A program made the translations under genes and the position numbers. 63,038 nucleotides of DNA from Chara braunii (Eukaryota > Plantae > Charophyceae): assembly GCA_003427395.1 (NCBI GenBank), contig BFEA01000034.1:2065089-2128126 (forward strand), in the 5' to 3' direction. The first letter of the stretch is position 1. Each line of letters starts with the position of its first letter. Below, one piece after another: positions 5,546-50,644 of the stretch. A model generated the notes under the pieces. It saw only the letters and a program-made list of their open reading frames with translations. It was not told the DNA's origin and ran no database searches.

Positions 5546-6966
5546 ATTCTAGCATCGGCCAGCCGTGAACCCGTGGATATAACGGTATTGGCCCGTTGTC
5601 AGACCGTCCGCTAAACACTACCGCAGCCATGGCTTCAGTTGTCTAGCTCCCTTCCCGCACTGGACATGCTTGACCCACACTCCGGCAAGACTCGTCACAA
5701 TGGAGCCACCATCTCCGTCGCTGCTATGCCCTAATCCCATCCTACCAGCTAGCCCCATCGCCAGCAAGACGCATCGTCTCCCTCCTTCTATTAACTCACC
5801 CCTACCTATGTGACCCCAGCATGGAGGGGAGAGTTAGAGAAAAGAACCCCGGTACCCCATCCAAGTGAGTCTCTCCACATACAGTGCGAAAAAAGATACT
5901 AGTACACTTATGAATTTAGGATTCAATCAGAGATTTTAAAATTGGGAATAGGTTTCCCTTTTGATGGATAGAGTTTTTTCCCGTTGCAAACTGGAGGCGG
6001 GCGATATGGGTATGGGCGGGCAATTTGGGTTTTTGTTGTTTCCGCTTTTGGCTTTTTTGTCTTCTACTGCATCTTCTGAGAAATACAGTATCGAAGCATT
6101 CTGCTGTTTACTACGCCCAAGTAACGAAATCTAGAATAGACTGCCCTGCCTCATTGGCAGGGCTTACTAAGAAAAAGAAAAAAAAAGAAAAAAAAAATGT
6201 ATTCGCTTTCGGGAAAAAGAAGAAAAAAAAACGTACTTGTGACGAACCACTTTTTGAAACTGCGCAATTTTCTGCGCGAAGCTGTTTTGGGGAAATACGA
6301 CGGGTCGAAGGGGTGAGCGGTGGGCAGACGGGTCGGGCGAGCAATTGGCATGGATGTCCTTGTTTCTTTTTCGTTTTTTTCTGCTAAGAATGTCGGATCG
6401 ATGTCGGGAAGATCCTGTGCCAATGGTTGGAGAACCGCGCCTTAGCGAGCGCGAAGAATAACTGTACCATAGCTTTTTCTTTCTTGTTTTGTTGTGGACA
6501 CTCGGGATTTTCGCGAGATCATTGCGCGAGAATATCGTTTTTGAATTTTCAAGCGGTGTCGTGCCCCCACGGGCTCTCGGAATTGTTTTTCTTCGGAATT
6601 TTTCCTTTGCAATTAGGACTTAAGATATGAATTTAGGCACCTTCTCGATTTTGCTGCGCGGTGCTCCCTGCTTATGCACGCCTTGCCGCGACAAGATCTG
6701 GGTTCTGATTTCTTTTTGCGCCTTAATATTGCACGCAACTATAAAAATTTTGGCGGGTGTAATTGCAGTTATAATCTTCTCGTTCTTGATGACCTTCGTG
6801 TTCTTCCCTCTTCCCGCCTTGTGCTCGCCCGCGCATGCACGCCTTCTTCCCTAATCTGATTGGTTCCTATGCCTGCATGATCGGATTGATGCTCGGAGAG
6901 TGGCTCAGTCCCCCGCGCCGCGGCCCAGACATGCAGACGTAGGCACTTCCTCTCTTCTCCTTCTCA

Positions 6967-7072
6967 TCACTTGGGGCTAATCCCGTATCCCTCGAGCAAG
7001 AGTGCACACTATAAATTTCACTTGGGGCTAATCCCGTATCCCTCGAGCAAGAGTGCACACTATAAATTTCAC
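6967..7072 (+). repeat. 51-bp tandem duplication containing a TATA-like CTATAAAT inside LTR A1
   Basis: tcacttggggctaatcccgtatccctcgagcaagagtgcacactataaatt occurs at 6967 and 7018. LTR A2 has a single copy. Confidence 0.85.
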
Positions 7073-7320
7073 AAGCACGATTAGTTGTCTCTCTAAGAAT
7101 TTCGAGGTTAGCGCGATCAGTGAGGGTCGGCTAACGAGCAAGTTTGGAAGGTAAGTGAGTGTGAGAGTTGGGCGATCCGACGAGTTGGTGTCGGGTATTT
7201 GGGGTTGACGTGCGGGGCCGCGACGGATTGTGGCGCACGGGCGAACCTGGCTTGCATGCTTGAACCAAGTGGGATGACAACTCTGCGTTGATACGTGACG
7301 ACGGACTGTCGGTATCGGGA

Positions 7321-7422
<102 letters not shown>

Positions 7423-8935
7423 TGTGTGGGTACGGGATAAAGTTTTTTTTTGTTATTTCCTTCTTCCCCTGTTCATCTATACAATTTTGGATCCTGGTAT
7501 GGCCGATTTTGTTATCAAGACCCTCCTCTTTTAAACTTCGCTTGTACATTGTCTCGGATTTTCCTGTGATTTTATTCGATATGCATGCATGAAATGAATG
7601 TAAATTATTTTTTATTAGTGATCGTTTCGGATTTCTAGCTCTGTTTTCCGATGTTTGTTTCGTCTCTAACCAATGTTCACTTGCGGGACCTATACGCTCA
7701 GAGCTGATTGAAAATGATCGTCTTGATGTCTGGGGGTCTCGTCGTTAACACTCGGAAGTGTTATGATGAGTTGATCGCCCTTCAGCGTCACATGTATGGC
7801 ATGTAGTGATTGGTAGGATAGTTGCACTTGTGTTGAACGTAACTGGAATCAATCGGTTGTTCCTTACGAGTACATGCTCGCACGATCGCGATCTCGAGAA
7901 AGCCGAGTCGCCACGTACGCGCTCGTCCGCGTGAATCAGCCTTAACCCCGTGTAAGGATGCGGGGGAATCGGCTTACTAGACGAACATGGCTGCGAGATC
8001 TCCCTCCTGGACATCCGATTACGAAAACCTGAGGGACCCGGAATATCGCGAGTATTGGGACGACGAACAACTTAGACTACGGGGAAACTTAAGATATCTA
8101 AAATTTCCCAATCTGACGGAGCACTTTCCACTGGGCTATAACCAGCGATCCTAAAGGCCCAGACTACCCCGGTACGGACAATACTCAATACTACATATCC
8201 CCGGGTTTCGTCGTTATCACCACCAACTTCCCTCCCTTCCATCTCCTCCTCCCCTATCACCAACTCACAGTGGTTCCGTTGTATTCTATAGCTTCCTATT
8301 GGCCCATCCCACTGTGCGAGGGTTGTCGGCATTACCGGGTGTGCCGGGCCTCGGGAACTACCCGACAGACCCGAACCGAGGCTGAGCGTCGAATGCAAAA
8401 CCTTCGTTTACGGCCTGCCTCGGCAGAATCCGAAGCCTGTTGCGAGCGGCGCCTACAACTGGCCGAACTTCGCAATCGACCCCGAAGGTGAAACCAAAGG
8501 CGATGGTGATTTCCATTTTTGGGTTTAAAGCTGATGAAATTGGGGTTCGTTGGCAGGGGCAATGTTATGGGGATTTTGTTCGAGAATGCAAGAGTGTTTA
8601 GATATGTCGACGCTGGGGTCGTAGAAGAGTACCCCGGAAACTTTGGTTTGGATGTACTGCACATGCCATCGGCCCTACGCTGCATGACATCTGCAGTTGT
8701 CCCGCTGTGCATAAATCACGAGAGGTGGTTTACCTTCCTTCTCATAAGGCTTAAAGCGCCAAGGCACGATCTACATATCCCCTCTTGCGCTTTTACCCCT
8801 GAAACTTACCAGAAAAGATCCCAGTTTCGACTTGAGACTCCACCCCCACTTTCCTAAAATCCTTGCCACACCCACTTCTTCGCACTTCTTGGCCCCCGTC
8901 CCATTCGGATCAGGAAGTCGCGCCGGGCGTGAGCT

Positions 8936-8948
8936 TGGTATCGGAGCC
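8936..8948 (+). promoter_or_regulatory. Primer binding site, initiator tRNA-Met type
   Basis: TGGTATCGGAGCC is one mismatch from the canonical TGGTATCAGAGCC and lies directly after LTR A1 homology. Confidence 0.8.
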
Positions 8949-9068
8949 GACACGTGGCGAGCTCACAAGAGAAGCGGGTAGGAAAGTCGCATAGTACGAT
9001 CTGGCGAACAGAGGGCGGGCTAGACAAAGGAACGCGCCGCGACGCGATCCTATAATACTTAGGAACCG

Positions 9069-9095
9069 ATGGTCGGACGGCCTGCCGCCAATACG
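9069..9095 (+). pseudogene. gag: Probable first 9 codons of element A gag (MVGRPAANT), cut off by insertion of element B
   Basis: ATG lies ~120 bp after the PBS. It joins in frame to EAQNVNVQLGGAPV at 43424 (-) when B is removed and the inversion is undone. Confidence 0.5.
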
Positions 9096-19538: not shown

Positions 19539-19545
19539 GGGGTTC

Positions 19546-20060: not shown

Positions 20061-20069
20061 GATGAAGGA

Positions 20070-25484: not shown

Positions 25485-28400
25485 GGGCGCAGCCCCCTAC
25501 GGGGGGCGACCAAAGAAACACAAAACAGTAGCTCAGAAGGTTAAGACGGTTGCGGTGGCCCGAGAGCGATTCACACTAGATGGGGTATCTGAAGAAGAGA
25601 TCGCTAGAAAAATTAAAGAGAGGAAGAAGAAGGAGCCGCAACGGTTGACAAAAGAAAGGATAGCGGAGATGGATATAGGAGATGGAAACTTGACCGAACA
25701 AGAGAAGGGGCGCGCGCTAGAAGTACTTAAGACCTGCGACAAGGCCATAGTTTTTAGTGACGCGAAAAGAGGGAGAATTGATCCTAGGTATGCCAAGCCT
25801 GGCAGGATCTACACGATCCCGCATACTCCATGGAATGATGCCGGGTGGAAGTTTGCTCAGAAAGAGAAGGAGGAAGTAATTGTCTTTCTCAAAGAAAAAA
25901 TGGCGTCACATATGGCTGAGTCATCTGATAGCGCGTACGCGAATAGGTGGTTCTTCTTAAGGAAGCCTAATGGGAAGATCTGATGGATTCATGACCTTCA
26001 GAAGGTTAATGCAGTTACAATTCGAGACGTGGGCTCCATACCACATGCTGATCTGTTAGCGAAAGGAGAGACGGGCATATCTATTTACTCTGTCTGCGAT
26101 CTATTTTCACGCTATGATGAGATACCCCTAGATCCTAGGGATAGACATCTCACGACCATGCACGCGCTGCTCGGCTTAGTGCAGATGATGGTCGTGCCCA
26201 TGGGATGGACCAATGGAGTCGCGGTTTTCCAGATAGCTATGGTAGTTATTCTAAAAAGGACTTCATTCCTGATAAAGTTGAAGTATTTCTGGACGACTTC
26301 CCGATTAAAGGATGAGACACAGGTTGCTCCTGGTGTCAGGAGATTCGTAGAGCAGCACCTAACGGACATCTACGCGGTTCTAGAACAGCTAGATGAAGCT
26401 AACTTGATGGTCAGCGAGACAAAGAGTCGGTGGGTTGTATCGACAATTAAGATTCTAGGGTTTATATGCGATTCAAGGGGTCGTCGAGCGGACCCGGGAA
26501 AGTTAGAGAACTCCTGAACTGACCGACTCCATTGGATAGCGCTACTGAAGTCCGCAAATTCTTAGGAGTTGTAGGCTACTGGAGGATTTTCATACGTGGA
26601 TACGCGGAGAAGACAGAACCTTTGCGAACTCTCCTTAGGAAGACGGAGCGGTGTTACTGGGATTCTCCCCAAGAGCTTGAAGTACAAACCCTCAAAGAAG
26701 AGTTTAAAGAAGGGGGATGAATCCTAGGCGTGCCATTTTTCGAGGACGAGACCAACAAGCCATTCATAGTGTCTACGGATGTTGGGCCGTGTTCGGCTGG
26801 AGGGCTGCTTGGTCAAAAGGACACCGACGGCAAGGAGAGCCTAAGCAGGTTTTACTCTACACAACCGGCAAGCCACTCACTTTGCGTCTACTTTCAATTC
26901 TAATTTGCTGGCCGCTAAAATTCGAGAGTCGTACGCTCAACACCGCTGAACGCAACTACAGTCAGTTTAAGAAGGAGGTGTTAGTTGTTCTACGGTGTTT
27001 AGACGCCTTTAGACACTACATATACGGGAGACGATTCGTTCCACGGGTAGATCCTACAGCTGTGGCGTCAGTTTTACAGAAGGAATTCAGTCTGGCGGAT
27101 CCCACAATTGCGCGATGGCTGATTAGGATCTGACTCTACGATTATACTGTAGAGAGGATCTCGGGAACGAAGAATGCGGTTGCTGATGGACTTTCACGGA
27201 TTCCGATCGAGTCGGAGCGACCAATAGCGGCAGTTGCACTAACTATGACTAAACATAGACGAACAAATCGCTTCCTGGTTAACCTCTATGAAGGGAAGTA
27301 CCGGGCCATAGGACTGCATCTGTCATGAGAGGAGAGTTCTGATCCGGAGATTAGGAGACATGTGGCACAGTACTGCCTTCGATCTGACCATTTATTCCGC
27401 CGACCTACGGGATCAGGAATGCCATTACGAGTAATCTGTGACCCCGAGGAGAAGCAGTCCATAGTGGCAGAACTACATGATGGTGTGGTTAGCGGGCATA
27501 GAGGAGTTAAAGGGACATATGAGAAGGTTCGCCGATTATACTGGTGGGAAGGACAGTATAAAGACGCCGAGAAGTATTGTGTCACGTGTGAGGAATGTCA
27601 GAAGGAGTCCCTTGTCAGGTACAAGGAACCGTGTCATCCTTCTTATCCTACTAGACAAGGCGAGAAAGTACATATTGACCTGGTAAAGATGTCGAAGGGT
27701 GTAGGGAATATGAATTATGTAGTGAACATCAGAGACGATTTCACTGGGTTTGTCGACGGCAAGCCTATCAGAACGAAGGTCGCTAAAGAAGTTAAGAACT
27801 TTGTTCTGGAATATTTGTCTAAATACGGGTGTGTCAGTAAGATTGTGATGGACAGAGGGGCGGAGTTCCTGGCAGACGAGGTGCAGAGTGTGTTCAAGAA
27901 AGCGGGAGCGATAGTATCGATAGCTACCGTCTATCACCCTCAATCCAACGCACCTGTAGAACGAGGTCATCAATCATTGATAGCGTCCTATCGAAGTGGT
28001 GTAGAGGTAAAGATAGTGACTGGTCAAAATATTTTCGATATGCGATATGGGGAGATAACGTAACAGTCCGAGCTAGCACAGGATACCCGCCTTACACTCT
28101 GTGGTTTGGGAGGCATTGCCCTCTGCCCATAGAGTTTCATGTCAATAGTTGGACTACAGTTGATTGGGCGGATAGTATGTCGCGAGAGGAGCTTCTGGAA
28201 GCTAGGACTAGTCAGATAGCCTACGGATTAGAGGACAACCTCATGACCGCTGTCAATCGACTGGCGGTGGAAAGGGAGAAAGGCAAGGTGAGATGGGATA
28301 AAGATATCAGAGTTAGAAAGGAAAAGATTAGAGTCGGCGACATGGTGCTTCTCTATCACGCTACATTGGAAAGGACATGGTCAGGGAAGCTGGCTAATAG

Positions 28401-28560
28401 ATGGATGGGTCCCTACCACGTAGTTGCTGCACTCAATTGGGGAGCATATATGATTGCTGAGCTAGATGGGTCGGAGTGAAAGGATCCTGTGGCAGGGGCA
28501 AGGCTGAAGTTGTTTAGGCCAAGGGAAACTCCTGCTCCTGCCCTGAGACTATCAGATCCT
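25480..28560 (+). pseudogene. pol: Pol of element B: RT, RNase H, integrase (stops and frameshifts)
   Basis: RT motifs PMGWTNG and VFLDDF (frameshifted), FLGVVGYWRIFI. RH motifs ERNYSQFKKE and NAVADGLSR. IN motifs HDGVVSGH..CEEC, HIDL, DRGAEF, HPQSNAPVERGH and WMGPY. Confidence 0.93.
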
Positions 28561-29034: not shown

Positions 29035-32000
29035 TGTCGGGCGGCCGAATGTCAGTCGACCACCCGAAATCCGATGGATTACACCTTAGATTGTCTGCCT
29101 AGAGAGGGATTGACCGGGACGTTCGTCCGAACCGTAAGGAAAAATTAGGGGTCGGGGAGAGACCCCTAATATTCTCTATGTCGGCTATTGAAACTGACTC
29201 TTGAAATTAACGTGATGAACAGGCGCGCCTACCGCGCCTAGCGCCTACCCTTTTCCCTTCGATCCGAGGTTGTTCGCGATGCGGTCGGCCTCGGAGTCGG
29301 GACGTGGTGCTAGGGCTCGGCGCGCCCCTTTTACACTAGCCAATTGATGAGGGAATGAACCCTCAAAATTTCATTAACTCTACTGACAAATTTAAAATTG
29401 CGAAAAAGAATTAAAAATAATAAAAGGAAAGAAAGTAAATGAATATTCGTTATTTTATTAAATTTCGTCAAAATTTATCCTTGATGAAATTATTCGCAAA
29501 TTTCTTCGATTCCAGTGACGGGGTTAAAAATAAGAAAAATAATTAAAAATGGTAAAAAGGGACGAAACTAACGATTTTTTTATTTATTTAATTAGAGTCT
29601 ATGAAATTCCATTCTCACGGATTTTTGTCAAAACTACCCATTTAATCCCTTTCATTGGTTTGATCCGATTCTTGCTAATTTTCTTATGTTCCGCCAACGT
29701 TCCCTGATTTTCCTGGTTTTCTTGACTTTCCTGATATTACCTGATATTCTTGATTATTACCCTCCCTATCAACTAGAGTATTCCTTTTGGGTGAGTGAGG
29801 TCCTTGTTCCACGAACTTTGGTGACGGCGGATGGATCAGCGAGGCGGGGTTTTTGGGGTTACAGCAACATTCTCGGTTTGGCGCTGCGATTGGTACTTCT
29901 ACAAGGCGGCCGCCGGACTCTATTATGGTGGTATGGATGGTGGTTTGGGATAAGCACGTCACTCTGGTTCGGGGCAGGTTCGGTACTATCACAGCGCATC
30001 GAAACGGTACGGTGCTCTGTACTACTGGTACGGCGGCTCGGTACAAGTCGGGACGCTGGGTTGAAACAAACATGGTACACAGGTTTGGGCACGCCACGGT
30101 ACGCTGGTTCAGGTCAGGTGCGGTATGGTTATTGGGACAACGTTGGTACAGGCTACTACTGTTCGGTGTTGATACGATCGGTGCGACCATTGGGGCAGCG
30201 ACGTGAAGACACTGGTTTCAATTGACGTGATTACCGGTCCGGTGCTGGCATGGTGTCGAGACAACATACTGCAGTTCCATCCTGTTATTTTATGACCGGG
30301 GCTGGTACCGTCACGCTATGGGCACTTACACGGATCTGGGAAGGAATATTACAGTCTCCACTTGTCACTTTGCTAGGGTCTTTGCTCTCGCACTGGTATT
30401 GTACACGTGCTCCTCGGCGTGACGTTCTGCATAGACCCGATATGATTGTAGGATCGGCACCGACGAGGACCCGGTCGGATCCTATTTCTCAGGCTCTGTA
30501 ATCGGCACGGTACTGAAACAACGTACTATGGCTCGACTTCATAGGTCTGACACTATCATGAATGAGACGACGATTGGTGTGCGCGGTTCAACTCTGTTAT
30601 TTCCTTTATGGTGCTAGGACTGGGATCGTGGCATTGGTGGCCGCAGCTGGTACTGTTGTGTCTGTGGCGACCCTGCAACCCTGGTACTCGAGCGGAGACC
30701 GCCTTAGGGGCCCACAGCCTTCGGTGTCGTGGGAATTTAGACCGGGCGTCGACGGTAAGCACATCCGGCAAATGCAACCAAGGGAACTGGTACCATTGGT
30801 ACCGGTGCGCTGTCCCGTGTCGTCTGAGTTATTCAAGGGAACGCGGGAGTCGAGACTTATGGGATGTCGTTGAGGAATAAAAGGGGGGAATTCATAGTGG
30901 CGAGGGGGACAGTGAGCCTGGCGTCCGCAGCCCACTTGCGCAAAGCCCAGTTGAGGTACAGCGGGCACTGGACGCGGGGCTCGGGCATGGAGGAGGCGAC
31001 TATTGGGGGAGACTTCTTTGAGGCGCGCATGGCGTACCCAGCCCACCTCCTCGTCGGGGTGAGGTCAGCGTGAGAACCTGCCGAGGCGCTCCCTATGTGC
31101 GAGTGGAGCGCCAGACGTACATCTGCCAAGTATGGCTGATTCACATTGAAGGTGAGTTGCAGTTTGCCGGATTCAGGGGGCGAGGACGTGAGAGTTTTGC
31201 TCACCCGGGCTGGCGGATGAATGGGCAACCAGCATGAGCTGGATAAGAGGGATTGAGCGGTAACCAAGAAACATGGATCCAGCGAAGAAAGGAGAGGCAT
31301 TTAATTGCGCACTGTGTACCCAGCGAGGGAGCGCGTGATCAGTCACGCGGACAACGGTTTTCTCACGAGCGGCGTGACCCCGCCATATCTCTTTGGAGAC
31401 GAACTGTGGGTTGACGGGATAGAGTGACCAACCAGACTCAAGTGATCTGTCAATCAAGCGATCCCGCCGGTAGCAGCTTCACTCTGTGAACCATCAATCA
31501 AGCGGTTCCGCTGCTAGCGGGAACAACCCTTTTCAGCGATCTGGTTATCAGTGATCCGCTTTTGAGTGATTTGTCAGCGGGCTATCGTTACCAATCTGGC
31601 AGCGAAAGAGGTAAGGGCGGGAAACTCAGACTCAAGCGTAAGTCGGGATATCGTATCCGGGGTGAGCAGGTCAGCGCTTACGACCGTGCCGTTTAATTTT
31701 ATTTTATTGTGATCCCAATTACAAACAACTGTTGGCGAAAGGTGGGGGGGAAAGCGAGCTTGTGCACAGAGAAGGGGAGAAGCGAACAACTTGGAGGGAG
31801 AGAGGCAGGCGAGATAATTATATATATACGTATACGCAGATATACGTGCGCACTTATATATATATATGTATAACTTGATTTGAAAAGCAAAATTCGTCTA
31901 AGAAACATCGCTTCAATGAACTCACCAGATCTTGGTCATGTTTAGATGCGAAGATTGATTTATTACGAGGGGGATGTTTGAAAGGCACTGTCTGACGAGC

Positions 32001-32869
32001 GAGCCCTTATAGTGAGAGGTGGAGACGAACTGCTTGGATTTGTGCAGAAGAAGCCAGGAACATCTGTGGCACAGTGACCACCATAAAGAGGGACCCTGTT
32101 TATGACTCTCAACCCTGATCTTAGGGTGGGGGGGGGGGTTGTGAATAAGATATTTAGAGACATTCTGTATAAACATTGACGGAAGACTTGATGGCTTCCA
32201 CCGAACGAAACGGCTTTGTCAACCGGTGCATCCCGAACTAGTGGGAGAGCGATCTTCTATCTCTGCCCGAGAAAGGGAATCGTTGTCTGTTTTATGAGTT
32301 TGAAGTGCGGGCGTTTAATCTTACTCATTTATCCTCACTGTTCATACTAAACGAATATATTAAATCTGGCGGGCTTGTGTATGCAGTCAATTCTCAGTGG
32401 CCAAGGGTAAAGCTGAGGGTGTGCTTATGAGAGAGTGAGAGGTTAAAGGGAAGGGAAGGATACAACGCGAAGTGTCGGTTACCTGCTCATGCTCTTTTGA
32501 TTCGATACTCTCCCTTGCTTCTCTTGTTTTATTTATATTTCCGTCTCTTGGTTAACTATACCCAGGCCTATTGTGTTAATTTCCCCTTGCCATAAACCCT
32601 CCCCTGCCGAACTGCAACAGAAAGGGTCATCATAGTTTTCGAACCCCCTGCTGAAAGCAATCAATTATGACTAAAAAACAAAAATTACATAAAATTACTC
32701 TATCGGAAACAAAGGACGACGGATCGGTTCCGACGCGTGTGTGGCAGGCAAAGTGGACATTCAACCCTGCTGATCGCCGAGGACCTCGGAAGCGGGCGTG
32801 GCGAGTGACAGGCGTCGTTGCCCTTGGCTTCGACGAACAGTAGGCGGCCCCTCCTCGGGTTTCCTCACA
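29035..32869 (+). mobile_element. Full-length LTR B (~3.8 kb), probably a recombinant of two copies
   Basis: TGT...ACA ends. The first 1.1 kb matches the reverse complement of 43423-44514 and the remainder matches 9096-12056. Followed by ACGA. Confidence 0.85.
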
Positions 32870-34400
32870 ACGAGCTATTTCGGAATCATACAACACCTCT
32901 TCACCTCCTCTCATTGTGGCGCCAGATCTTTGTGACCAAACCAGTGCTGTGTTTTGAGTGACATACACTTCTTTCTTCGGGTAGATCCTTAAACCCCTAA
33001 ACCCTTGCTCCTCTCCCTGGTGTCTGATACCCTAGCAATATTTTTTCCACTTTCCTTTCTTAATTTCTTCAATCTCTCCCATACTATTCCAAATCCACCA
33101 AGCAGTTTGATTGGGGAAGGGAGGGATCAGAGAATTCTTCGTTGCGTCTCATCGGGATTGCTGTATCGATCTTAGTCCACTCATGAAAAAGCAGAAGGTA
33201 GTCCCTCACGAGATCCTTTTATCAGGGAATTCATCGTTGGGTCTCATCGGGATTGTTGTATTGATCTTAGTCCACTCATGAAAAAGGAGTCGGTAGTTCC
33301 TCACTAGATCCTTTCTCCCTTGTTCCTCCCTGGGTCCTTTTGTCCCCCTTTCCATTCCACTTTTCCAATCCTCCCGTTGTCGCCTCCAAGCCAGGTCAGG
33401 CTAAATTCCTTGATTTTTTTGTTGGATATGTTTTTGTGAATGTAGTAATTGGATCTGAGCCTTAAACTTCTCAGAGGGTCCATAGTATTTCTGTTTGGAT
33501 CTGTTGTTGTATGCTTTCCGTTAATTCTGGTCCTTCCAGTTTTGCTCTTTCCATCTCGTATGTGCAGCGTCGTTGCCAGAGGGCCTAGAGTACCGCCCGA
33601 CGTCCCAGTTTGAACATACTGCTGGTGAAATCATCTAGTTGGTCCTTAGGCCAGGTTTCGCACAGCAAGGCTTTCCAGTCCCACGGCCACTAGATCTGAC
33701 TTTCTAGTTGTTCCCCGATTCTATCGCCTCCAACCACTCTAAGACCGGATTATTGGAAAATTCATGTTCCAACTGCCTTTGCACTATGTTATGCAATCCT
33801 TCTGACAGGTTATCAAACTGGACCCAGAAATGATCTTTGAGCATCACCTGTCGATGGCGGGATGCCTCCCCCTGAGGTGCCCCTGGAGGTTTCCAAGGGT
33901 GTATAGTGACAACAGACCCTTTGCAGCTGAGGGATTCCAAGGACACAAGGTACCGTGCATAGGATTCTTCCACACATAACGAGTCAAATGCGGGGATGCA
34001 GCCATTCGGGTAGCATGCTTTATGTTCTAGACAGTAAGTTTGGCAAAGGTCTTATGAAGTGGGGGATGGGCAGCCTTCTGGATGGTAGTGTCTAAAGCCA
34101 ACACTCTCCCACGCACCACATCATTCGCACACACACTCACACCCGTGTTGGCTGAAGACCTTACTGATACCGACTGGGAGGATCCAATTGACTATCTCAG
34201 TTGGTTGGCACCAAGAGTGCCACAGGCGACTCTGGGGATTGACCCAACAACCTCCTGAATGCCACTTGTGTGCCTAACCAATTGAGCTAGGCCGCTGGAT
34301 GGAGCCCAGATTCTTCGATTGCAGGAGGGGGAATAAAAAAAAAGAAACGATTAGCAAGCTCCTAAGGGTTGTGCCACCCCACACGCGGCCAGGAAAAAAA
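32870..34400 (-). mobile_element. 5' part of a decayed LINE-like element (continues at 44515 +)
   Basis: Minus-strand ORF remnants, for example 33704-33973. The reading frame ..YDSEIAR joins the sequence at 44515 through the shared TCGT. The outer boundary is approximate. Confidence 0.5.
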
Positions 34401-34532
34401 GCATTTCAAGCTCTAAACTACTAGCAGTGTATCTACCTATGTTATACCAGAAGATTCATGCTCATGTTGCACATTTGTTCAGTAGTGGAGCAGAGCCCTC
34501 GATCTCCACAGCTCTCGTGGCAAAGGTAAGTA

Positions 34533-37139
34533 TGTGACGCCCAACCTCACACCCAGCGCGACTTCCTGATCGGAGTGGGACGGGGCCCCGAAAGTGCGAA
34601 GAAGGGGGTGTGCCAAGGATTTTAGGAAAGTGGGGGTGGAGTCTCAGGTCGGAACTGGGATCTCCTGTGGCAAGTTTCAGGGGTAAAAGCACGAGAGGGG
34701 ATATGCAGATCATGCCTTGGCGCTTTAAGCCTTATGAGAAGGAAGGTAGACCACCTCTCGTGATTTATGCATAGCGGGAAAACTGCAGATGTCGTGCAGC
34801 GTAGGGTCGATGGCATGTGCAGTACATCCAAACCAAAGTTCCCGGGGTACTCTTCTACGACCCCAGCGTCGACAAATCTAAACACTCTTGCATTCTCGAA
34901 CAAAATCCCCATAACATTGCCCCTGCCAACGAACCGCAATTTCATCAGCTTTAAACCCCAAAATGGAAATCACCATCGATTTTGGTTTCGCCTTCGGGGT
35001 TGATTGCGAGGTTCGGCCAGTTGTCGGCGCCGCTTGTAACAGGCTTCGGATTCTGCCGAGGCGGGCCGTAAATGGAGGTTGTCCATTCGACGCTCAGCCT
35101 CGGTTCGAGTCTGTCGGGTAGTTCCCGAGGCCCGGCGCGCCGGTAATGCCGGCAACCCTCGCACGGCGAGTTGGGCCAATAGCGAGCTATGGAATTCCAC
35201 GGAACCACTGGTCCACTGTGAGTTGGTGATAGGGGAGGAGAAGATGGAAGGGAGGTGATAACGACTAAACCCGGGAATATGTAGTATTGAGTATTGTTCG
35301 TATCGGGGTAGTCTGGGCCTCTAGGATTGCTTGTTATAGCCGAGTGGAAATCCCCCGCGCATAGTCGGTCGTGCTCCGTCAGACAGGGGAATTCAGGATA
35401 TCTTAAGTTTCTCCGTAGTCTACGTTGTTCGCCTTCCCAATACTCACGATATTCCAGGTCCCTCAGTTTTTCGTAGTCGGATGTCCAGGAGGGAGATCTC
35501 GCAGCCATGTCCGTCTAGTAAGCCGATTCCCCCGCATCCTTACACGGGGTTAAGGTTGATTCACGCGGACGAGCGCGTACGTGGCGACTCGGCTTTCTCG
35601 AGATCGCGATCGTGCGCGCGCATACACGTAAGGAACAACCGATTGATTCTGGTTACGTTCAGCACAAGTGCAACTATCCTACCAATCACTACATGCCATA
35701 CATGTGACGAAGAAGGACGATCAACTCATCACAGCACTTCCGAGCGTTAACGACGAGACCCCAAGAAATCAAGACGACCATTTTCAATCAGTTCTGAGCC
35801 TATAGCTCCTACAAATGAACATTGGTTAGAGACGAAATAGACATCGCAAAACAGAGCTAGAAATCCAAAAAGATAACTAATAAAAAATATATATATTTCA
35901 TTTCATGCAATGCATATCGAATAAAATCACAGGAAAATCCGAGACGATGTACAAGCGAAGTTCAAAAGAGGAGGGCCGTGATAACAAAATCGGCCATACC
36001 ATGATCCAAAATTGTACAGATGAACAGGGGAAGACGGAGACAACAAAAAAAAACTTTATCACGTACCCACACAACCTCTCTCTCTCTCTCTCTCTGTCTC
36101 TCTCTGTTCTCGATACCGGCAGTCCGTCGCCGCGTATCAACGCAGAGTTGCCATCCCGCTTGGTTCAAGCATGCAAGCCAGGTTCGCCCGTGCGCCACAG
36201 TCCGTCGCGGCCCCGCACGTCAACCCCGCATACCCGACACCAACTCGTCGGATCGCCCAACTCTCACACTCACTTACCTTCCAAACTTGCTCATTAGCCG
36301 ACCCTCACTGATCGTGCTAACCTCGAAACTCTTAGAGAGACAACTAATCGTGCTTGCAAAATTTATAGCGTGCACGCTTGAGCGAGGGATACGGGATTAG
36401 CCCTAAGTGATGAGAAGGAAAAAAGAGGAAGTGCCTACGTCTGCATGTCTGGGCCGCGGCGCAGGGGACTGAGCCACTCTCCCCGTATCGATCCCCTCAT
36501 GCAGGCATAGGAACCAATCAGGTCAGGGAAGAAGGTGTGCATGCATGGGCGAGCACAAGGTGGGAAGAGGGAAGAACACGAAGGACATCAAGAACGAGAA
36601 GATTACGGTTGCAATTACACCCGCCAAAACTTTTACAGTTACGTGCAATATTAAGGCGCAAAAAGAAATCAGAACCCAGATCTTGTCACGGCAAGGCGTG
36701 CGTAAGTAGGGAGCGCCGCGCAGCAAAATCCTGAAGGCCCCTAAATTCCTATCTTAAGTCCTAATTACAAAGGAAATATTCCGAAGAAAAACAATTATGT
36801 GAGCCCGTGGATGCTCGAAACCAGTTGAAAATTCAAAAACGATATTCCCGCGCGATGATCGTCCCAAAATCCCCAGTGCCCACAGCAGAACAAGAAAGAA
36901 AAAGCTCTGGTACAGTTATTCTTCGCGCTCGCTAAGGCGCGATTCTCCAACCATTGGCACGGGATCTTCCCAACACCGATCCGACATTCTCAGCAGAAAA
37001 AAACGAAAAAGAAACGACGACATCCATGCCAATTGCTCGCCCGACCCGTCTACCCACTGCTCACCCCTTCGACCCATCGTATTTCCCCAAAACAGCTTCG
37101 CGCAAAAAATCGCGAGGTTTCAGAAAGTGGTTCGTCACA
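34533..37139 (-). mobile_element. LTR A2 (3' LTR of element A, now inverted)
   Basis: TGTGACG...CGTCACA terminal inverted repeats. Homologous to 6238-8935. The outer flank reads TACT on the minus strand. Confidence 0.85.
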
Positions 37140-37755
37140 TATGTGACGCCCAAGGGGTTTCAATCTTGTGCAAGCTCCCACTTGCACCCATATCTCTCCA
37201 AGGTGCACGTGTCATTACCGTAGGATAAGAGTGTAGAAGTCATTCTGCTGACACGTCCTAATCCTTGCACCCATCTTTAGTGTTCCGAGGGAGGGGGGTA
37301 AGGGAGTCGGAATGCAGGTGCGAGGGGTGGGGGATGTTCTCTCGGGAGTGCGGGTAAGAAGCTTGCCATCCCTGCTACTGTCCTGGGAAGTTCGAGGTAC
37401 CTGATGATGCGGTGTATACGTGGGAAACGATGGCTGCCATAGGGAAGTGAAGCAAGGTAGTCAGGATTAGAGAGTGGAAAAGGTACGAAGTACGACCGCA
37501 CAAAATTGCTCGTGATCTGTACACACAGGGATAGCCCCTGTGATTGTGCAGTACACTTCGATCACATTGTGATCCCGCCATGAGGCGCTGAAAAGAATGA
37601 TGTGAAGGCAAAAGGAGGGAAAGACGCACTGAGCAGTGGGATGCAGGTACACTGTGGCGGCGAGGCGGATAGTGTAGAATTGGTAGAAGAGGGAGTAAGG
37701 GAAAGGATTCTGGGGAAATACGAGTCGGGTGTCGATTTGCCAGAGTGTAAGGTAA

Positions 37756-38603
37756 TCAAGGGGACGACGGGATAATGATCGGGGACGTAGCCCGATGCCC
37801 CGCATCGGCACGTGCTCGAACTGAGGGACGGCGGGAAGGGGAGGGGGAGCGGTTTCGTTGCCTCCGTGTCGGCGCGCTTGAAGCCTCTGCGGCGCAGCGC
37901 TCATCTTCCTTTGTCGCCGGCTCCGGATCTCTGGTCGGATCGTCTGGAATCGGCAAGGCAGTCCCCGCCACTTGCTCCAATGTCCGCTTTCCTTCCGCGA
38001 TTTCTGCCCGGCGTTGCTCGGCTTCAGCAAGGTCCTCTCCGTGTGTCCCCGCCTGTTCCGCCCCTTCTTCCTCGCTCTCGTCCTCCTCCTCTTCCTCTTC
38101 ACTTATCGCCCCTGACTCATGCTCACTGTGCTCGCTGTAATACTCGTCCTCTTCGGGGGTGTCTTCCGATTCGTCTCCCTCTTCCTCTTCTTCTTCTTCT
38201 TCCTCTTCTTCTTCTTCTTCCTCTTTTCCTTCTTCTTCTTCTGACGTCGGCTCCCCTCGATCCAAGAAAAGAAGATTAATTATCTCTGCGGGGTTTAGGT
38301 GGTTACCTTGTGACGGGTAACTACGGTTGTCCCAATCGCCGTCCAAGCACGCCGACCACTGTAGATACGGCAGCTGCTAGGAGGATTAAGAGTTCCCCCA
38401 CAATTAGCTATCGATGTCTTGGCTCCACCGATCCGAAAACGAATCCCAGTAAATCCCCTTCCACCCCCGTTCTCCACGCCTGAATAGTGAGCAACTCCAC
38501 GTCCTCGTTCGTGGCGGGGTGCTCGCTGTCTTTGGTCCAGTTCAGCCTGATCTCGACTAAACACAAAGATAGAGTCTCGGAAGTTTGCCACCACCCTTGC
38601 CAC
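37756..38603 (-). pseudogene. Acidic, poly-Glu ORF in the 3' internal region of element A
   Basis: ORFs 38295-38603 and 37756-38346, with a long E/D tract and an R/S/P-rich tail. Confidence 0.55.
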
Positions 38604-38702
38604 TGTTCGGGCTGATACGCGGATGATGAACTTTTCTGATCACCGAGATGTGTCCGCGTGGCGCTAACATCCGCTCATTGAGTACCTGTTCCGTGGAAAA
38701 AC

Positions 38703-39293
38703 TCATCGCGAAGAGGAGGGAGATGATGGAGGGGGAGAAGAATGAGACTGGGGGACGTCACTTTCCCACTCGGACTCCGATTCCGAGGGCGACCCAGTTG
38801 GAGAGGGAGGAGAAGAAACAGAGAGAGGGCGGAGATAGGACACGTGGCAGACTATGGGCCTAACTGACCGACTGCCTGCCACTTCAGGAGCAAGGTGCAT
38901 GGTGTTCACTCCGTTAGGTCCGAGCTCGATCACTCGAAAGCACCCGAAGAATCGTGGCGCTAGTTTCCCTTGACGACCACATTTCCTTACCTGCACCAAG
39001 TCCCCCAATTTATACTGGGTCGGGGGCCGGCATTCCCATTTCGGGCGACACAAGGGACATAACCAAGCCTTGTCCGCGTTCCAATACTGAATGCGGGCAC
39101 CATGGGCCCTAGAACCACAATGCCGACAATCTACCCATTCAACATATCCTTCCCCGCTAGGACGCATAGGGACTGAATAGACACTCGAGATCGCCTCACA
39201 AAAATAACAAAATTTGTGAGGCAAAGAGAAGAGAGATGAGGATGAGAGGGGAGAGAGGGGACTACCTGAATTACCTCCATCGCCCATTGTCAC
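38703..39293 (-). CDS. PHD-finger-like protein fused to a GPY/F-like (integrase C-terminal type) module
   Basis: CYFC...WVDCRHCGSRAHGAR...WLCPLC, with the Cys after His replaced by Arg, followed by YKLGDLVQV..KLAPRFFGCFRVIE. Confidence 0.65.
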   Translation of the reverse strand: MTMGDGGNSGSPLSPLSSSSLFSLPHKFCYFCEAISSVYSVPMRPSGEGYVEWVDCRHCGSRAHGARIQYWNADKAWLCPLCRPKWECRPPTQYKLGDLVQVRKCGRQGKLAPRFFGCFRVIELGPNGVNTMHLAPEVAGSRSVRPIVCHVSYLRPLSVSSPPSPTGSPSESESEWESDVPQSHSSPPPSSPSSSR

Positions 39294-39296
39294 GTG

Positions 39297-41236
39297 TCAC
39301 TTCTTAGCACGTGGAAGGATGGCCACCTGTCCGTACTGTGGCCCATTGACTGGTTCCGGTTCTTTCCACGGGATGATTTATTCTCCCTTAGTAACCTTGG
39401 TTGGTCGGTGCAGTCGTGTCAGCCCGTCCATGTTCCCGTGTTTTTCCGCCTTTCGATGGATGATGTCGAAATCGTACTCCTGTAGCCGCACTGCCCAGCG
39501 TCCAATCATGCCCGTGTAATTAGTGAGCATCTTGAGGGTCAACAGGGACTCATAATCTGTGACGAGGAGGAATCTTTGTCCATACAGATACAAATGGAAG
39601 TGTCGAATCCCCCACACCACGGCGTAGCATTCCCCTTGGGGCCCCGAGTCGTTTCTCCTTTCGTCTAGTACGGTCCGAGATGCGTACTCGATGACGTGCT
39701 CGCGGCCGATCGCTTCTCGGGGTCGGGCTGGATCAACACAAGGGTCGTGGCCAAGGCTTCCTTCAATATCGCAAAGGCCTGCTCGCACTCAGCATCCCAT
39801 CTCAACGGTTGGTCTTTTCGCAAGAGGTTCGTCAGAGGTCGTGCGATTGTCGTGAAACCCTTGAAAAATCGTCGGTAGTACGAGGCCAACCCCAAGAAGG
39901 CTCGAACTTGCGTTAGCGACGTGGGCGTCGGGGCGCCTCGAACTGTCGCGACCTTCCTCGAATCTGGTCGCAAACACCCTCGCGTCACCACGTACCCCAC
40001 GAACGAGATTTCCGACAGGAAAACCTCGCTCTTTTCCAGGGCGATCTTGAAGTCCGCGTCTCGTAGTGCTCCAAGTGTCCATTCGATGTGTTGCGCATGT
40101 CCGTGAAACGATTCCGAATACACCAGGATGCCGTCCATGTACATGATGACACATAAGTTCACCATTCCCTGCGTTAGCCGAGTCTTGTTAACAAAATTTT
40201 GAAAGGTCAAGTTCATTGCCCTTTGAAACGTAGCCAGAGCGTTGCAAATGCCCATAGGACATCGAACCCACTGCCACGTGCCTTAGAATAACACGAACGT
40301 CGTTGTCGGACGATCCTCTTCCTTCACCAATATGTGGTGGAACCCGTGGTAGATATCGAATTTACTAACGTAGTTAGCACACCCAATCACATCCAACAAA
40401 TCATCAATCCCTGGGAGGGAATATACATCTTTGATCGTGATGTCATTCAACTTCCGATAATCGATGAAAATGCGAATGGATCCGATCTTTTTAAGGACTA
40501 AAACCACGGGAAAGGAACACAGCCCGGTAGTGGGTTCGATCCAACCATTGGCCTCAAATTCTCTGATACTCTCTAGGGCGGTTCGTCTTTCGACCAACGA
40601 GTATCGGTATGGCTTACAATGAATCGGCGGGTGGGCACCAGTCTGGATCTCATGTTGTATGACCATGGATAGTCCTATGTCCGTGTCCTCTGTATTAATC
40701 GCCCTCTGATATTCGGTTAGGATGTCTGCGATGAGTCTATGTATCTCGTTCGACACATAGTCCGCCACATGCAGTTCGTAGTGGCAGTCTCGTATCACCA
40801 CCAGTAGTTGTTTGGTCCTGACCACGTGGGTCTTTCTCGTGGGTGGAGATGATATGAAGGAATGGTCGGAACACCAGGAGAAGATCGTGGCAACCATTTG
40901 AGGTTCCTCTTCTCTGACTGCCACATGTTTCTCCAGGGTGATGCCATCCTCAATATCTTGAAGGTCCACGGCCTTCTTCTCGATTTTTAGCCCAATATCG
41001 AACGGGGCAAGGTCGTACAGCCCAGGGGGTTCCGAAGTCCAGTTTTCAACGCCCCTCTGTAGCAGTCGGATTTCTTTTCCTTTGGTGAGCAACGAACTGG
41101 GAGGGATTTCTGAGAGATCGCAGAAGGACCTCTTATCCTGGTATCTGGGTAACAATGGGGTGGTCGCCTCGTACATAGTTTGAGGGGGTTCCCAAGAATC
41201 CGTCAACTGAGATATCTGGATAAGTGGTTCTCCCAT
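39297..41236 (-). pseudogene. pol: RT-RNase H of element A (frameshifts, internal RH deletion, no integrase core)
   Basis: IDYRKLNDIT, MPMGICNALATFQRAM, YMDG (for YMDD), AFLGLASYYRRF, ECYAVVWGIRHF and HGNMDGLTRL. Confidence 0.9.
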
Positions 41237-41456: not shown

Positions 41457-42248
41457 TCATTGTCGCTCAGACATCGAGGTTGTTCGGAGGGTGAGGCGCA
41501 TTGGGACGGTGTATGGCTTTCCTCCGGTGTTGTTGAGGATAATTGCTTGTCGTTCGAAATCCGGCGTGGCCTGTAAGGCTATGAGGGCTGGTAATCCGAC
41601 GAGGACATCGTATGTGGTCACGTTTAGGACCACTACGTCGCCTAAGGCGTGGACTTTACGTATTTGAAAAGCGACGTTGGACATCCTTCCTGCAACTTGA
41701 ATCTTACCTTCGTCGGCGGAAATGAAGTGATCGCCCTCCGCGAGAGGAATCACGTCTTTCCGCCGACCAGCCCGCTCGGCCACCCGTAGTGATATGGCCA
41801 GGACCGCGGCTCCGGAGTCAAGAACTGCACTATAGGGGTTTCCCCAGACTTCCACGTCACATTCCACGGATCTCCATGGCAGGGCTTTGATCCGTAGGAA
41901 GTGGTCGTCTTTCCGAATTAGACCCATCCGGACGGGTTCGGAGTTGTTTGGCTCCTCTGGCTTCGGATCTCTAACGAGAGCCTTTCCTTTTACGGTTGCC
42001 AATTTGGCGAGGGCAAATCGCTTCCGGTTTGCTTTGGAGTGTTGTAGCATCCGGTCGTTAGCCTGTTCAGAGATGGTTGGCAGGTGTCCAATGGGCAAGG
42101 GGATGTGGTGATCCAAGGCACGGACTATATCTAACACATCAATCTTTCCTGCAGCGAACGCGGCTCCTTCGGATTCCATTTCCCTTGGGGAGGGTCTCCA
42201 TTTTGAAACTTCGTTATCGTCAAGGGCAGGTTGGATGGCCCCTATCAT
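41457..42248 (-). pseudogene. Aspartic protease of element A
   Basis: AVLDSGAAVL and DVLVGLPAL. Confidence 0.85.
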
Positions 42249-42260
42249 GTCGAGGGCTGG

Positions 42261-43424
42261 TTATCCCAACGATATGTACTGGTCAAGCGGGATAAGCTTC
42301 GCCGCTTTCTCCGTGACTCCCGACAGGCTTGCCCCGTTGTCGGTTTCCTTTACCATTGTGGCCACCCGGCCAGGTTCGTCAGCAATTGGTGCCGCAACTA
42401 CTGGCGCGATTCTTGTTTGCGTGAGACGATGGGGACAGTCCTGGGCTATGTGCCCGGGCTGATGACACGTGTAACAAACACTTACGTTAGCTGCCGCGGT
42501 GCCCCCTACCGGAGCGGGGGCTGCGCCTGGCATCATTGGTGCTGCTCTGACGGCGATAGGGCGCATCGATCTCATCAATGATTCGATCCGAGCGTTGTGC
42601 TCGTGTTGTTCCTTCTTACTTTCTTGCATTAGGCTAACCACTGCTCTAGTTAGTTCTAGGATCGCGTTTGACTCATTGGACCTTGCAGGGGCTTCTTGAG
42701 TAGGCGGAGGCATAGCCACAATCAGTAACCTTGAGGGCGCGTCATGTACCAGTCTCTTGGCTGCGACCTGTTCTAGGTAGGTGACCGGACCGGAGACGAA
42801 ACCCATAGTTTCAAATTTGTTCTGGAGCGCGGCCATCTCCGAAGAGTCTCCATCTTTTGCGTGATCTTCACCTTCCAGGAAGCTAGCAGCGAATTTCCGT
42901 TCCATTTCTTCTGCCTCATCCATAATTTGTTGCATCGTGTGGTTGATGGGGGAAAACTGCTTCCGTAATTTCGCACGCATTGCCCGACTCCGAAGCCCAT
43001 CGATGAATAAATCCCTCCCAACCTTCTCGTCCCTTTCAGATTTGACAAACAGTCTATAAAATCTACTACGATATTCTGTGACAGATTCGAGGGGCTTCTG
43101 AACTCGGTCCTTGATCATAAAGAAAGCCTATTCGGGGTGGATATAATCGAACCTGTTCAAGAAGTCCCTTTCAAAGGTTGGAAGATCTATCCAAGCGTAC
43201 GTGCTAAACCAGTGATGCGCATCCCCTCCTAGTCGGGCGGGGATGTTGATCCGAACTTCATCGTTATCATATTGTTGTGCACGTAAGGTAGCTAACCATA
43301 CCCCAGCCAGATGGTGTGCCGCGTCGAAGAGAAACAAATCGGGTGGAGCCGTAGGTGCGCGAGCTTGAACGGGTGGCGCGGGAACAGGGGCCCCGCCTAG
43401 CTGTACGTTGACATTTTGCGCCTC
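42261..43424 (-). pseudogene. gag: Gag of element A (N-terminus detached)
   Basis: LGGDAHHWF..FERDFLNRF, QKPLESVTEY..F, and zinc knuckle CYTCHQPGHIAQDC. Confidence 0.88.
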
Positions 43425-44514: not shown

Positions 44515-47175
44515 TCGTGACACGCCAACATTTTCAGATGCTAGAGAAACCCTTACGAAGTACAACCATGTTCTCCCAGGCAACACAGACATCGATGATC
44601 TTCATCTTACCATGTACAAAAAAGAAAGGGTGAGTGGACACAAATGGGGAGCCCTTTTACAACCTGCTCAGTCAATCCTCTGTAACCCAGAGTAATCAAT
44701 GCTGGCAGGAGTTTTTTAGTTTCTGTTTTTTCTTATGCTATTGAAGGTTTCTGTATCATGTGTACATAAGGGACACTGGACCCGTTTTCCAGCAGGTGAT
44801 TCTCCCCACCAATAGATGGAGCCTCTCCCCAGGTGATAGAGGTGGCTGCTCTCATCAACACCGGTAGCACTAAAGGGAGTTCGTTTAAATTGAAAAAGAA
44901 AAAAGGAAAAAAAAAAGGAGTGGTTGGAGGCGAGCCCCGAGTTCCTTGCCCCCAACGACGACTCTCGCATAGCCTGTCTGGACGTCCCGTTGGGAACGCT
45001 GCCGAATTTCCTGGATGTCTGGGTCTTCAAGAAGAATGGACAGAAGGCCACAGTCTTCCTCTCCACGAAAATCAATCCATCTTGGTTCTGTTGAAGGCGA
45101 AAAGCCCACCTGGGCACATACCCGTTATGCCCAGCAAACACCGCAGCCCCCCAAAAACCGCCTGCTGCCCCAAACTCAACTTGTGGAGTGCCAGGGAGCC
45201 AAGGGGATATGGTTCATTAACCACCCGACTTATCGCAGCTGGGTGTTTGATGATAATCTACAGAAACCAGATGGATTTGGACGCTGCGATCCAAGCCAAC
45301 CATCAAACCCCAGCTCTACCCCCCAGATGACAGCACGTGGAGGGCAACTGGGGCACGCAGGATGGAAGAGACAGGGATCGGCTCCCTAAGACACAACATA
45401 ATTAACGAGGAACTGATCGAGGAAGAAAAAAATGGGCTAGATGATATAGATGATCTTTGCAAATTGGGGGAACAGTTAGAAAGATCACAGCAAGAAACCC
45501 GGCCACAAAAACCCACAACCGCGGTCACACCCCCTGCCAGGGAACAACCAGCTGGCCCCTCCAACATCAATCACACATCCCTCGGCCACAAAACGCACCA
45601 GCAGCCATAGGAGAAAGAGACCACGATGGGGAAGAAGAGGTTGCCGATAACCTGGAAGAAACTGTGGACGGACCGGCGGACAGGGAATGGCTGGAAAATG
45701 GCGTCGCCTAACTTGAAAGAGTGAGTGAAGTTGCACATGGCACACTGCAGGCAATAGTGTAACTTGGCCAAGGCAACATCCACCGCAACTGTTCCTGCGA
45801 GACTCACCTCTGAGAACCGCTACGACATCCTTCGTAAAGAACACGCGCTATCAGAATTTTATGCGGAACAATATAACATGAAAACCAAAATCGAAGGAGA
45901 TAAGTTGAAGATTGACATTGCAATATATGACCAGCAATTCCAGTGGCCCCAGCTCTGTGGTTCACACAAAGACATGAAATCTGCAGCCAAAAGGGCCAGG
46001 AAAATGCAGCACACCGGGCACCCCCCGGAGGAGCAACCAGAAAACTGCACGCAGACGCAGGGAGCGACCGCCTCACTACGCCGCAGAAAACAGGTATTGT
46101 AAGCACAAGTGGCTGTCCTCAAGTAGAAGAATGCCCAGGCAGAGAAAACCTGTATCACCACCCAGAAAATAGCAAACGAAGCTTCGCCGGACTTTGAAGC
46201 CGCTGCGGGCCTTGCAGCCCACAAAGAGACTGGCAAGAGGGTGGTGATTCAATTCAGATGGAACGCCAAGGTTGCAGGCTGGGAAGTGGTTGTCCGGTCA
46301 TCAGGGGAGTTCCTAATCACGACCCAGCCTGACACCGAGAACGGTGAGCTAAGAAAAATGTTAAGGGCACTAATCGATGGCCCTATAATCCAGGTCGATG
46401 CCAAGGACAGAAACACAAAAGAATGGGAGGATCGCCAGGGTCACATACACCACGAGGACATGCGACCCATTCTGGTCCCGCTGAACGAGGACAGCAAACT
46501 ACTCCCCGACCTCATCTGGCTCTCGTGGCAAGTGGTAGAAGCCATGCCATACGGACTGCTGGGACAACGGGTATTAGTGGAGAGTGCCGCAATGGCGGCG
46601 TTACTGATCTCCTCGTATAGGTTGTTTCTCTCGGACAGCGAAGGGTACCAACGCAAGGTGCAAACATTGATGGACAGGAAGGAGATCCTCTCTCTGCCTA
46701 CCTAAACCAGCCATCACCGGCCCGAGGGGAGTGGATGAGATAGATGTCGATGCAACCCGGCATGACAACTCTGCCTTGTCGAGATTTGAGGATAGTCTCA
46801 TGGAACATCAATGTTATGGCAACGCTCCTCGATAACACAGATAAATGGAACAATATCTTAAAGCACCTAGACTGGTTTGGGCCTCAGACTCCCGACATTT
46901 TGTGTCTTCAAGAGATGCACCTTACAGCAACACACGAGCACCAACTCGCTCAAACAGAAATAATCAGATGTTTAAAGTGCGTCGGTGCTTCATACTCGGC
47001 ACCGGCTCCCCGCCCTGGGACAGTAGGCGCACCCATCATCTACAACGAAAACAAACAAATGATAAAGAATATAGTCGTCCAACAGTCACGGCTGGACCCC
47101 GGCTTTGGACGCTGCCCTCATTGTGGCGGACCCACCAGGTGTGGTGCTCCGCCTGGCCTAGAACTGACCCGTTAG
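44515..47175 (+). mobile_element. Decayed LINE: ORF1 remnants plus N-terminal apurinic endonuclease fragment of ORF2
   Basis: 46744-47175 contains LRIVSWNIN and PDILCLQEMH (APE motifs). It is truncated afterwards. Confidence 0.75.
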
Positions 47176-50487: not shown

Positions 50488-50516
50488 TATTATTATTATT
50501 ATTATTATTATTGTTA

Positions 50517-50572
<56 letters not shown>

Positions 50573-50576
50573 GTTA

Positions 50577-50644
<68 letters not shown>
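50488..50644. repeat. (TAT)n microsatellite
   Basis: Read directly. Confidence 0.95.

Follow-up and report, generated by a model that had tools for sequence, protein, structure and literature searches.

The window analysed here is a 63,038-nt stretch of the Chara braunii contig BFEA01000034.1 (GCA_003427395.1; positions 2,065,089–2,128,126, forward strand). It contains element A, a Ty3/Gypsy retrotransposon with a deleted integrase core. Self-comparison of the window revealed a 2.6–2.7 kb repeat in two copies, A1 (6238–8935, + strand) and A2 (37139–34544, − strand), which form the 5' and 3' long terminal repeats (LTRs) of element A; they share the start TGTGACGAACC and differ by 8.1% over 2569 gap-free columns (blastn identity 87.5–89.5%). 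The right-hand tip of the element is missing from the 5' LTR and is present both at the end of the 3' LTR (B2) and just before it (B1). This split-tip layout is real, family-wide and unexplained by the textbook replication cycle. The features involved, with the evidence for each, are as follows.

6234..6237, + strand: left copy of the target site duplication, TACT (sequence)
6238..8935, + strand: A1, 5' LTR, starting TGTGACG and lacking a terminal CA (blastn and alignment to A2)
8936..8948, + strand: primer-binding site (PBS) adjoining A1 (sequence; junction recurs in 57 and 60 contigs of DNA runs X1 and X3)
34529..34532, − strand: right copy of the target site duplication, TACT (sequence)
34533..34543, − strand: B2, terminal TGG-GCGTCACA, the right attachment end (loose contig ends before 34533)
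34544..37139, − strand: A2, body of the 3' LTR, with a TATA-like motif at 36367 (self-comparison; free left ends at 37139)
37133..37148, no strand: palindromic attachment-attachment (att-att) junction CGTCACA-TA-TGTGACG (sequence; depth maximum at 37139–37147)
37140..37141, − strand: TA spacer, where 2 nt usually part the polypurine tract (PPT) from the LTR (sequence)
37142..37152, − strand: B1, TGG-GCGTCACA in the PPT slot, the probable template of B2 (sequence and contig depth)

A1 begins TGTGACG, terminates in GTGAGCT with no terminal CA, and runs directly, with no spacer, into the PBS TGGTATCGGAGCC, as a first-pass annotation of the bare sequence had described. We take this PBS to be of the initiator-tRNA-Met type, with one A-to-G difference from the usual plant motif; no tRNA gene was found in the window. 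A2 terminates in GTGAGGT and is followed by TGG-GCGTCACA and then TACT. The 12-mer TTGGGCGTCACA occurs exactly twice in the window, both times on the − strand (37153–37142 and 34544–34533), against a composition expectation of 0.008, and TTGGGCGTCACA-TA, with the TA at 37141–37140, directly precedes A2. Because base 37153 reads G in ~96% of the aligned depth of the contigs described below, the repeat shared at family level is 11 nt (TGG plus GCGTCACA) rather than the 12 initially reported, which hold for the window copy, where the twelfth matching base is incidental. TACT lies next to both outer ends of element A, before A1 and after B2, and these outer ends (TGTGACG..CGTCACA) are of the TG..CA type.

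Two further first-pass statements were borne out, one concerning a palindrome and the other the lack of a PPT. TTGGGCGTCACA-TA and the start of A2 together build the perfect 16-bp palindrome CGTCACATATGTGACG at 37133–37148, one of six non-trivial perfect palindromes of at least 14 bp in the window, three of which lie within a TA microsatellite. It provides no independent evidence, because it is composed of two 7-bp inverted termini plus TA. No PPT precedes A2: within 500 nt upstream the longest purine runs are 7 nt, and only 9 of the final 20 nt are purines. A PPT and two same-ended TG..CA LTRs are the two usual Ty3/Gypsy structural features that element A lacks. In the usual geometry 2 nt separate the PPT from an LTR beginning TG, and B1 is likewise followed by two bases and then TG.

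Recurrence of these junctions was assessed in contigs from four public DNA runs (two samples, one study), aligned to window stretches 34400–37400 and 37040–37280; on the first of these, 11,574 (X1), 10,982 (X3) and 10,315 (X4) contigs aligned. Right ends at 34533 with unrelated flanks were seen in 148 (X1), 160 (X3) and 177 (X4) contigs (agreement 0.32–0.33), which marks GCGTCACA as the genuine right terminus of many insertions. At 34541, 57 (X1) and 60 (X3) contigs departed into sequence like window 8939–8960, which reproduces the junction of LTR and PBS; this junction was absent from the six X4 rows listed. Free left ends at 37139, with unrelated flanks (agreement 0.4), were found in 23 contigs per run (23 + 23). 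At the internal junction, contig depth, which is not equivalent to copy number, reached its maximum at 37139–37147 (188,038 in X4 and 152,318 in X2; single long contigs, 6–20). Depth in X4 was 151,390 at 37153, 6,852 at 37166 and 8,384 at 37123, and because of this steep fall most of it crosses the internal junction, provided that the aligned pieces are at least ~31 nt long. One contig with 20 differences spans the junction with 58 and 46 letters on its two sides. No variant was present at 37130–37152 among the 40 of 79 rows listed, while positions 37127 and 37129 vary at 11–14%. The family majority letter at 37160 is C (97%), and across 37130–37160, where depth is high, the sense strand of the family sequence is not purine-rich.

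Taken together, these data confirm that the split-tip layout is family-wide and high-copy, and not peculiar to the window copy. The internal CACA-TA-TGTG junction and the truncated 5' LTR end, whose recurrence the first-pass annotation had proposed to check, both recur, and ordinary LTRs with a PPT were not what the family proved to have. That annotation had also entertained a one-off tandem insertion with an internally deleted second copy. Such an event, or a local rearrangement of an ordinary LTR element, might be suspected in a copy that is old, nested and inverted, but it is refuted by the recurrence of all three junction types, seen in tens to hundreds of contigs that have other flanks or differ at many positions from the window copy, and its likelihood is negligible. 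A further possibility is that B arose from integration behaviour, through insertion at, or recombination with, the B1-TA site of another copy, so that B2 and the TA junction would be target sequence. The host region is indeed a nest of elements rearranged by inversion; against this, each run has about 150 or more contigs in which B2 borders on unrelated flanks, B is missing from the free left ends, and a target remnant would bring internal sequence along. This idea is already largely refuted and we consider it very improbable.

The majority flank letters had CG at positions 2–3 in four of the five DNA-run rows (three right-end rows and one of two left-end rows), a pattern that would fit a 4-bp duplication with an NCGN target. 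The nearest known element in target behaviour is Phygy of Physcomitrella, for which PMC6317226 reports a 4-bp duplication with NCGN preference. The PBS given there for Phygy is 81% tRNA-Trp, as opposed to Met-type in element A, which weighs against a link between the two; the resemblance is one of target behaviour, an apparent NCGN preference, rather than demonstrated kinship. In RNA run X5, 80 reads aligned, none with at least 99% identity, too few to locate the start or end of a transcript. A scan for the layout pattern returned 20 loci in viral contigs and 6 in metagenome contigs, none of which resembled the window beyond the pattern itself, and a protein scan of the viral contigs found no relative of element A.

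Several observations concern the sequences within and around these termini. A second CGTCACA motif, followed by TGTATGG, lies inside both LTRs (35703–35709 and 7786–7792) and is possibly a relic attachment-like site. A1 carries a perfect 51-bp tandem duplication (6967–7068) that doubles the TATA-like motif (7010 and 7061) and is absent from A2. The two outer flanks (34529–34500, − strand, and 6210–6237, + strand), when joined, resemble a 5' splice site with a T-rich tract after it, and the right flank is itself genome-repeated (depth 4,000–13,000). Just upstream of B1 lies one more predicted feature.

37168..37187, − strand: hairpin with a 7–8 bp stem and a purine-rich loop (prediction)

In another subfamily, compared by eye at loose ends at 37163, two pairs of this stem are changed on both sides and one pair is broken. 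The fold of 37125–37300 (176 nt) is no better than that of shuffled sequences (z −1.06), and the hairpin may be regarded as a candidate signal.

The coding content of element A follows the order gag, protease (PR), reverse transcriptase (RT), RNase H (RH) and integrase (IN) tail, and is distributed over five pieces.

8990..9095, + strand: 5' gag piece, bounded by the left inversion break (translated, it matches the N-terminus of relative P0037)
41460..43423, − strand: gag with CCHC zinc knuckle, and aspartic protease; right inversion break at ~43423 (zf-CCHC E 1e-5, above cut-off)
39381..40552, − strand: RT and RNase H, with stops and a frameshift (RVT_1 E 1e-13 and 1e-7; RT_RNaseH E 1e-17)
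38703..39296, − strand: remnant integrase open reading frame (ORF), with the first residues and the SH3-like C-terminal part kept, zinc finger and catalytic core gone
37756..38640, − strand: degenerate extra ORF with an acidic tract, common to relatives (tblastn of P0076, P0030 and P0003)

The match of the protease-like ORF to gag-asp_proteas (E 1.5e-4) and that of the integrase remnant to SH3_Tf2-1 (E 0.002–0.003) are each below cut-off, the curated one in the latter case; P0122 and P0124 match the remnant at 39107–38829 with 55–73% identity. A tblastn search with the integrase core of the relatives gave no match in the window copy. In relatives P0076, P0127, P0128, P0131 and P0132 the full gag-PR-RT-RH-IN order, including rve, is retained, and in P0076, P0122, P0124 and P0127 the same SH3-like tail is preceded by an H2C2 finger and by an rve core that carries D-D-E (34 residues from D to E). 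For P0076 the matches are E 1e-9 (rve) and E 3e-7 (H2C2), with foamy virus integrase as the best solved-structure match (E 2e-8); P0127 shares 80% identity with element A in RT and 76% in RNase H. All 120 RNase H relatives listed are named Chara braunii (identity 62–86%). When 10 of 150 RT-RH matches were looked up, seven, which were unnamed or not from Chara, proved to be Gypsy proteins of animals or metagenomes (37–49%), and no moss protein was present among these 10 or among 5 of 17 integrase matches.

Family-wide loss of integrase was considered on account of a stop 30–43 residues past RNase H in 22 of the 109 relatives with the motif, and was dropped because P0127, which does carry an integrase, shares this linker and because integrase coding seems to lie in a separate frame. 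As separate observations, RNase H ends at a conserved stop ~43 residues past its last motif in many relatives (window 39380–39270, − strand; P0127, P0028, P0122), and, judging from protein models, the integrase of the relatives seems to begin in an overlapping frame of its own, which would be unusual for Gypsy pol.

These relatives bear out the earlier suggestion that the outer ends and 4-bp duplication indicate a DDE integrase. The same annotation had likened element A to Ngaro and PAT elements, and here the topology of the repeats is all that stood. An element of this tyrosine-recombinase type, or a Gypsy element mobilised in trans by such a recombinase through the B/A junction, would account for the A1-B1-A2-B2 arrangement, which fits the definition of split direct repeats (PMC9210276, PMC4157794). 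However, Pfam scans of 74 window ORFs (40 + 34, from 165 of at least 100 aa) gave no tyrosine recombinase match, and none appeared in the Pfam lists of the 120, 6 and 17 relatives shown. Element A has instead a protease, a tRNA PBS, TG..CA ends and a 4-bp duplication, and its relatives encode the cognate DDE integrase. Ngaro/PAT elements are not known to carry a protease, a DDE integrase or a classical target duplication. In element A, by contrast, the TA spacer is lost at the outer ends, the target is duplicated on insertion, and B is only 11 nt long, as against 152 bp in the Xenopus example. A tyrosine-recombinase origin is accordingly extremely unlikely. The likeness to Ngaro, PAT/TOC and VIPER that survives is topological, and points to an intermediate in which the joined ends reproduce the internal B-A joint (PMC9210276, PMC4157794).

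Since A1 lies on the + strand and A2 on the − strand, element A is not collinear in the window, and the earlier description of it as A1-internal-B1-TA-A2-B2 holds for its topology and not for its order on the contig. The arrangement indicates a single inversion of ~9096–43423 (~34 kb, as assembled) that would have split element A inside the start of gag, with breaks near 9095 (left) and 43423 (right). The N-terminus of P0037 matches window 8990–9075 (+) and then continues like window 43423 downward (−). A second repeat, intact at 29035–32871, is also split, with its two parts sitting at both breaks. The TACT duplication, the continuity of P0037 and the splitting of this second repeat at the same breaks are the grounds on which A1 and A2 are assigned to one element. 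A mis-oriented contig between the N gaps (24186–24476 and 49393–49912) was rejected as an alternative: gag and protease of a neighbouring element read across the first gap without changing direction, and the breaks were placed at ~9095 and ~43423. Short look-alike sequences are present at the two breaks.

How could an element with this layout regain its right tip? In the established replication cycle of LTR elements, a single U3 (unique 3') and a single U5 (unique 5') region give rise to both LTRs of a new copy, and the right end of the linear DNA stops at the PBS, whose TGG is the complement of the tRNA's CCA. Priming by tRNA at the PBS and two strand transfers would here yield a linear DNA that finishes on the right with U5, followed at most by TGG, and so has no CA. 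Because U5 lacks CA and the 3' end of the RNA cannot supply B2 to a minus strand primed by tRNA, B1 is the only template left, and the right tip is very probably templated from B1 by some end-joining route. As to the particular route, we lean towards an extra strand transfer that joins the DNA ends at TGG, followed by cutting of CACA-TA-TGTG by the DDE integrase. This transfer is proposed because in most copies the PBS end and B1 have precisely TGG in common (37153 being G in 96%) and because B1 sits in the geometry of a PPT. Plus-strand synthesis would use a non-purine primer and start at B1 or further upstream, leaving a left end that bears B-TA ahead of U3. The TGG of the right end could then pair with the CCA of the left end and be extended by RT through GCGTCACA, producing a ring-shaped and probably nicked intermediate; RTs including that of Tf1 are reported to begin polymerising in vitro from 3' ends that share just 2 nt of complementarity (PMC3035444). 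Integrase would finally nick both strands behind their CA, on either side of the TA, and insert with a 4-bp stagger, as foamy virus integrase is described as cutting both strands of its own LTR-LTR palindrome (PMC1180852). For the window copy the enzyme would have been supplied in trans, or the core lost after insertion. A one-LTR circle was rejected as the intermediate on logic, as it always leaves U5 followed by PBS and would yield elements ending at B1.

The same product would arise if host end-joining ligated blunt ends into a closed two-LTR circle whose palindrome is then cleaved by integrase, as proposed for foamy virus. Cleavage of LTR-LTR junctions by integrase in vitro is known (PMC1180852, PMC9785060), the junction is a perfect palindrome that is nearly invariant in contigs, and an end variant one base longer exists in X4 (34543, 64 contigs). 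On the other hand, such a circle has two equal junctions, and elements ending at B1 and tandem U5-B-TA-U3 joints were absent among the rows shown: no loose end fell at 37142 or 37153 among 12 of 185 loose-end rows (the smallest holding 9 and 7 contigs), and there was no go-back joint among 15 of 117 joints. Nor does it explain why the PBS and the first letters of B1 both conserve TGG. We consider the ligated circle, the chief competitor of the transfer at TGG, unlikely, although clearly less so than the other alternatives discussed above. The scarcity of permuted products favours, without proving, a marked, end-specific junction over a free circle with two equal junctions. Of the first-pass idea of replication through a circle with a preformed junction, the preformed junction is supported by the family recurrence, while a true covalent circle is hypothetical.

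A number of points weigh against the transfer at TGG and the wider reading built on it. The plus-strand start at B1, the transfer itself and the cutting by integrase are postulated from sequence logic, and the plus-strand primer is putative and non-purine. TGG could derive from either end, and blunt joining yields the same product; the one-base end variant in X4 may be a subfamily difference or a sign of imprecise joining. The rarity of permuted forms is bounded by the 12 loose-end rows and 15 joints shown rather than measured. All four DNA runs share their one study and two samples, the contigs are short, and the 4-bp duplication is read in a single copy (n = 1), in which TACT does not conform to NCGN. 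Lastly, A1 and A2 differ by 8% and other copies are equally close, so that their pairing depends on the duplication and on the continuity of gag.

Compared with known systems, element A resembles plant non-chromovirus Ty3/Gypsy elements (Metaviridae) in gag-PR-RT-RH-IN order, tRNA PBS, long direct repeats, TG..CA outer ends and DDE integrase, and departs from them in the missing CA of the 5' LTR, the internal duplicate of the right tip and the lack of a PPT. The two-LTR circles of foamy virus and HIV-1 offer a palindromic att-att junction from which a DDE integrase can generate processed ends, much as proposed here, although in the accounts of PMC1180852 and PMC9785060 both tips are already on the linear DNA and the circle is a by-product. 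In element A, by contrast, the junction is genome-encoded, the spacer is 2 bp, and the right tip is impossible without joining of ends. Troyka is likewise an LTR group defined by atypical termini; its description in PMC12440569 gives CG..CG ends and 3-bp duplications, unlike element A, and its opening part mentions no split tip. A split-tip layout in an element with a DDE integrase was not found in a literature search that left subscription journals, Repbase and the Chara genome paper outside its scope.

We give roughly even chances to the broader proposition that a streptophyte Gypsy clade (Chara, perhaps mosses) would depend on an obligatory third strand transfer, with an internally templated circle-type att-att junction as the integrase substrate. 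If true, this would be the first natural group of LTR retroelements obliged to integrate through a circle junction; the group would have arrived, by convergence and with a DDE enzyme, at the split-repeat principle of tyrosine-recombinase elements, and would prime its plus strand in the absence of a PPT. Whether LTR-LTR circles can truly serve as integration precursors has been debated since 1984, and according to PMC1180852 the early reports were unsubstantiated and circles are usually called dead ends. A high-copy family unable to make its right tip by the textbook route makes the circle-precursor question testable. For annotation, structure-based finders that require matching TG..CA LTRs (as in PMC6317226) would likely miscall or miss such elements.

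The remainder of the window holds other repeats. A Gypsy family distinct from that of element A occupies 20940–28500 (+) and encodes a gag, protease, RT, RNase H and integrase of its own. A 26-bp tandem repeat precedes its gag (20806–20909), and it is interrupted at ~23147–24610 by an insertion with a fold-back inverted repeat (23395–23720 / 23850–24180) across an N gap. The ~3-kb direct repeat at 9103–12056 and 30167–32869 (93–94%) is probably the LTR of another element, and the TGG-starting motif after its first copy, at 12060, resembles the tRNA-Asp PBS of Athila. A long run of decayed ORFs at 14400–20500 (+) had no Pfam match and shows internal protein self-similarity (17955–18206 versus 18395–18646, 37%). 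A third Gypsy gag-protease region lies at 52814–55284 (−), and a weak endonuclease/exonuclease/phosphatase match (E 0.004) at 46744–47175 (+) is likely a LINE fragment. A 51-bp tandem repeat surrounds the second N gap (49235–50005), and a long (TAT)n tract extends over 50488–50643.

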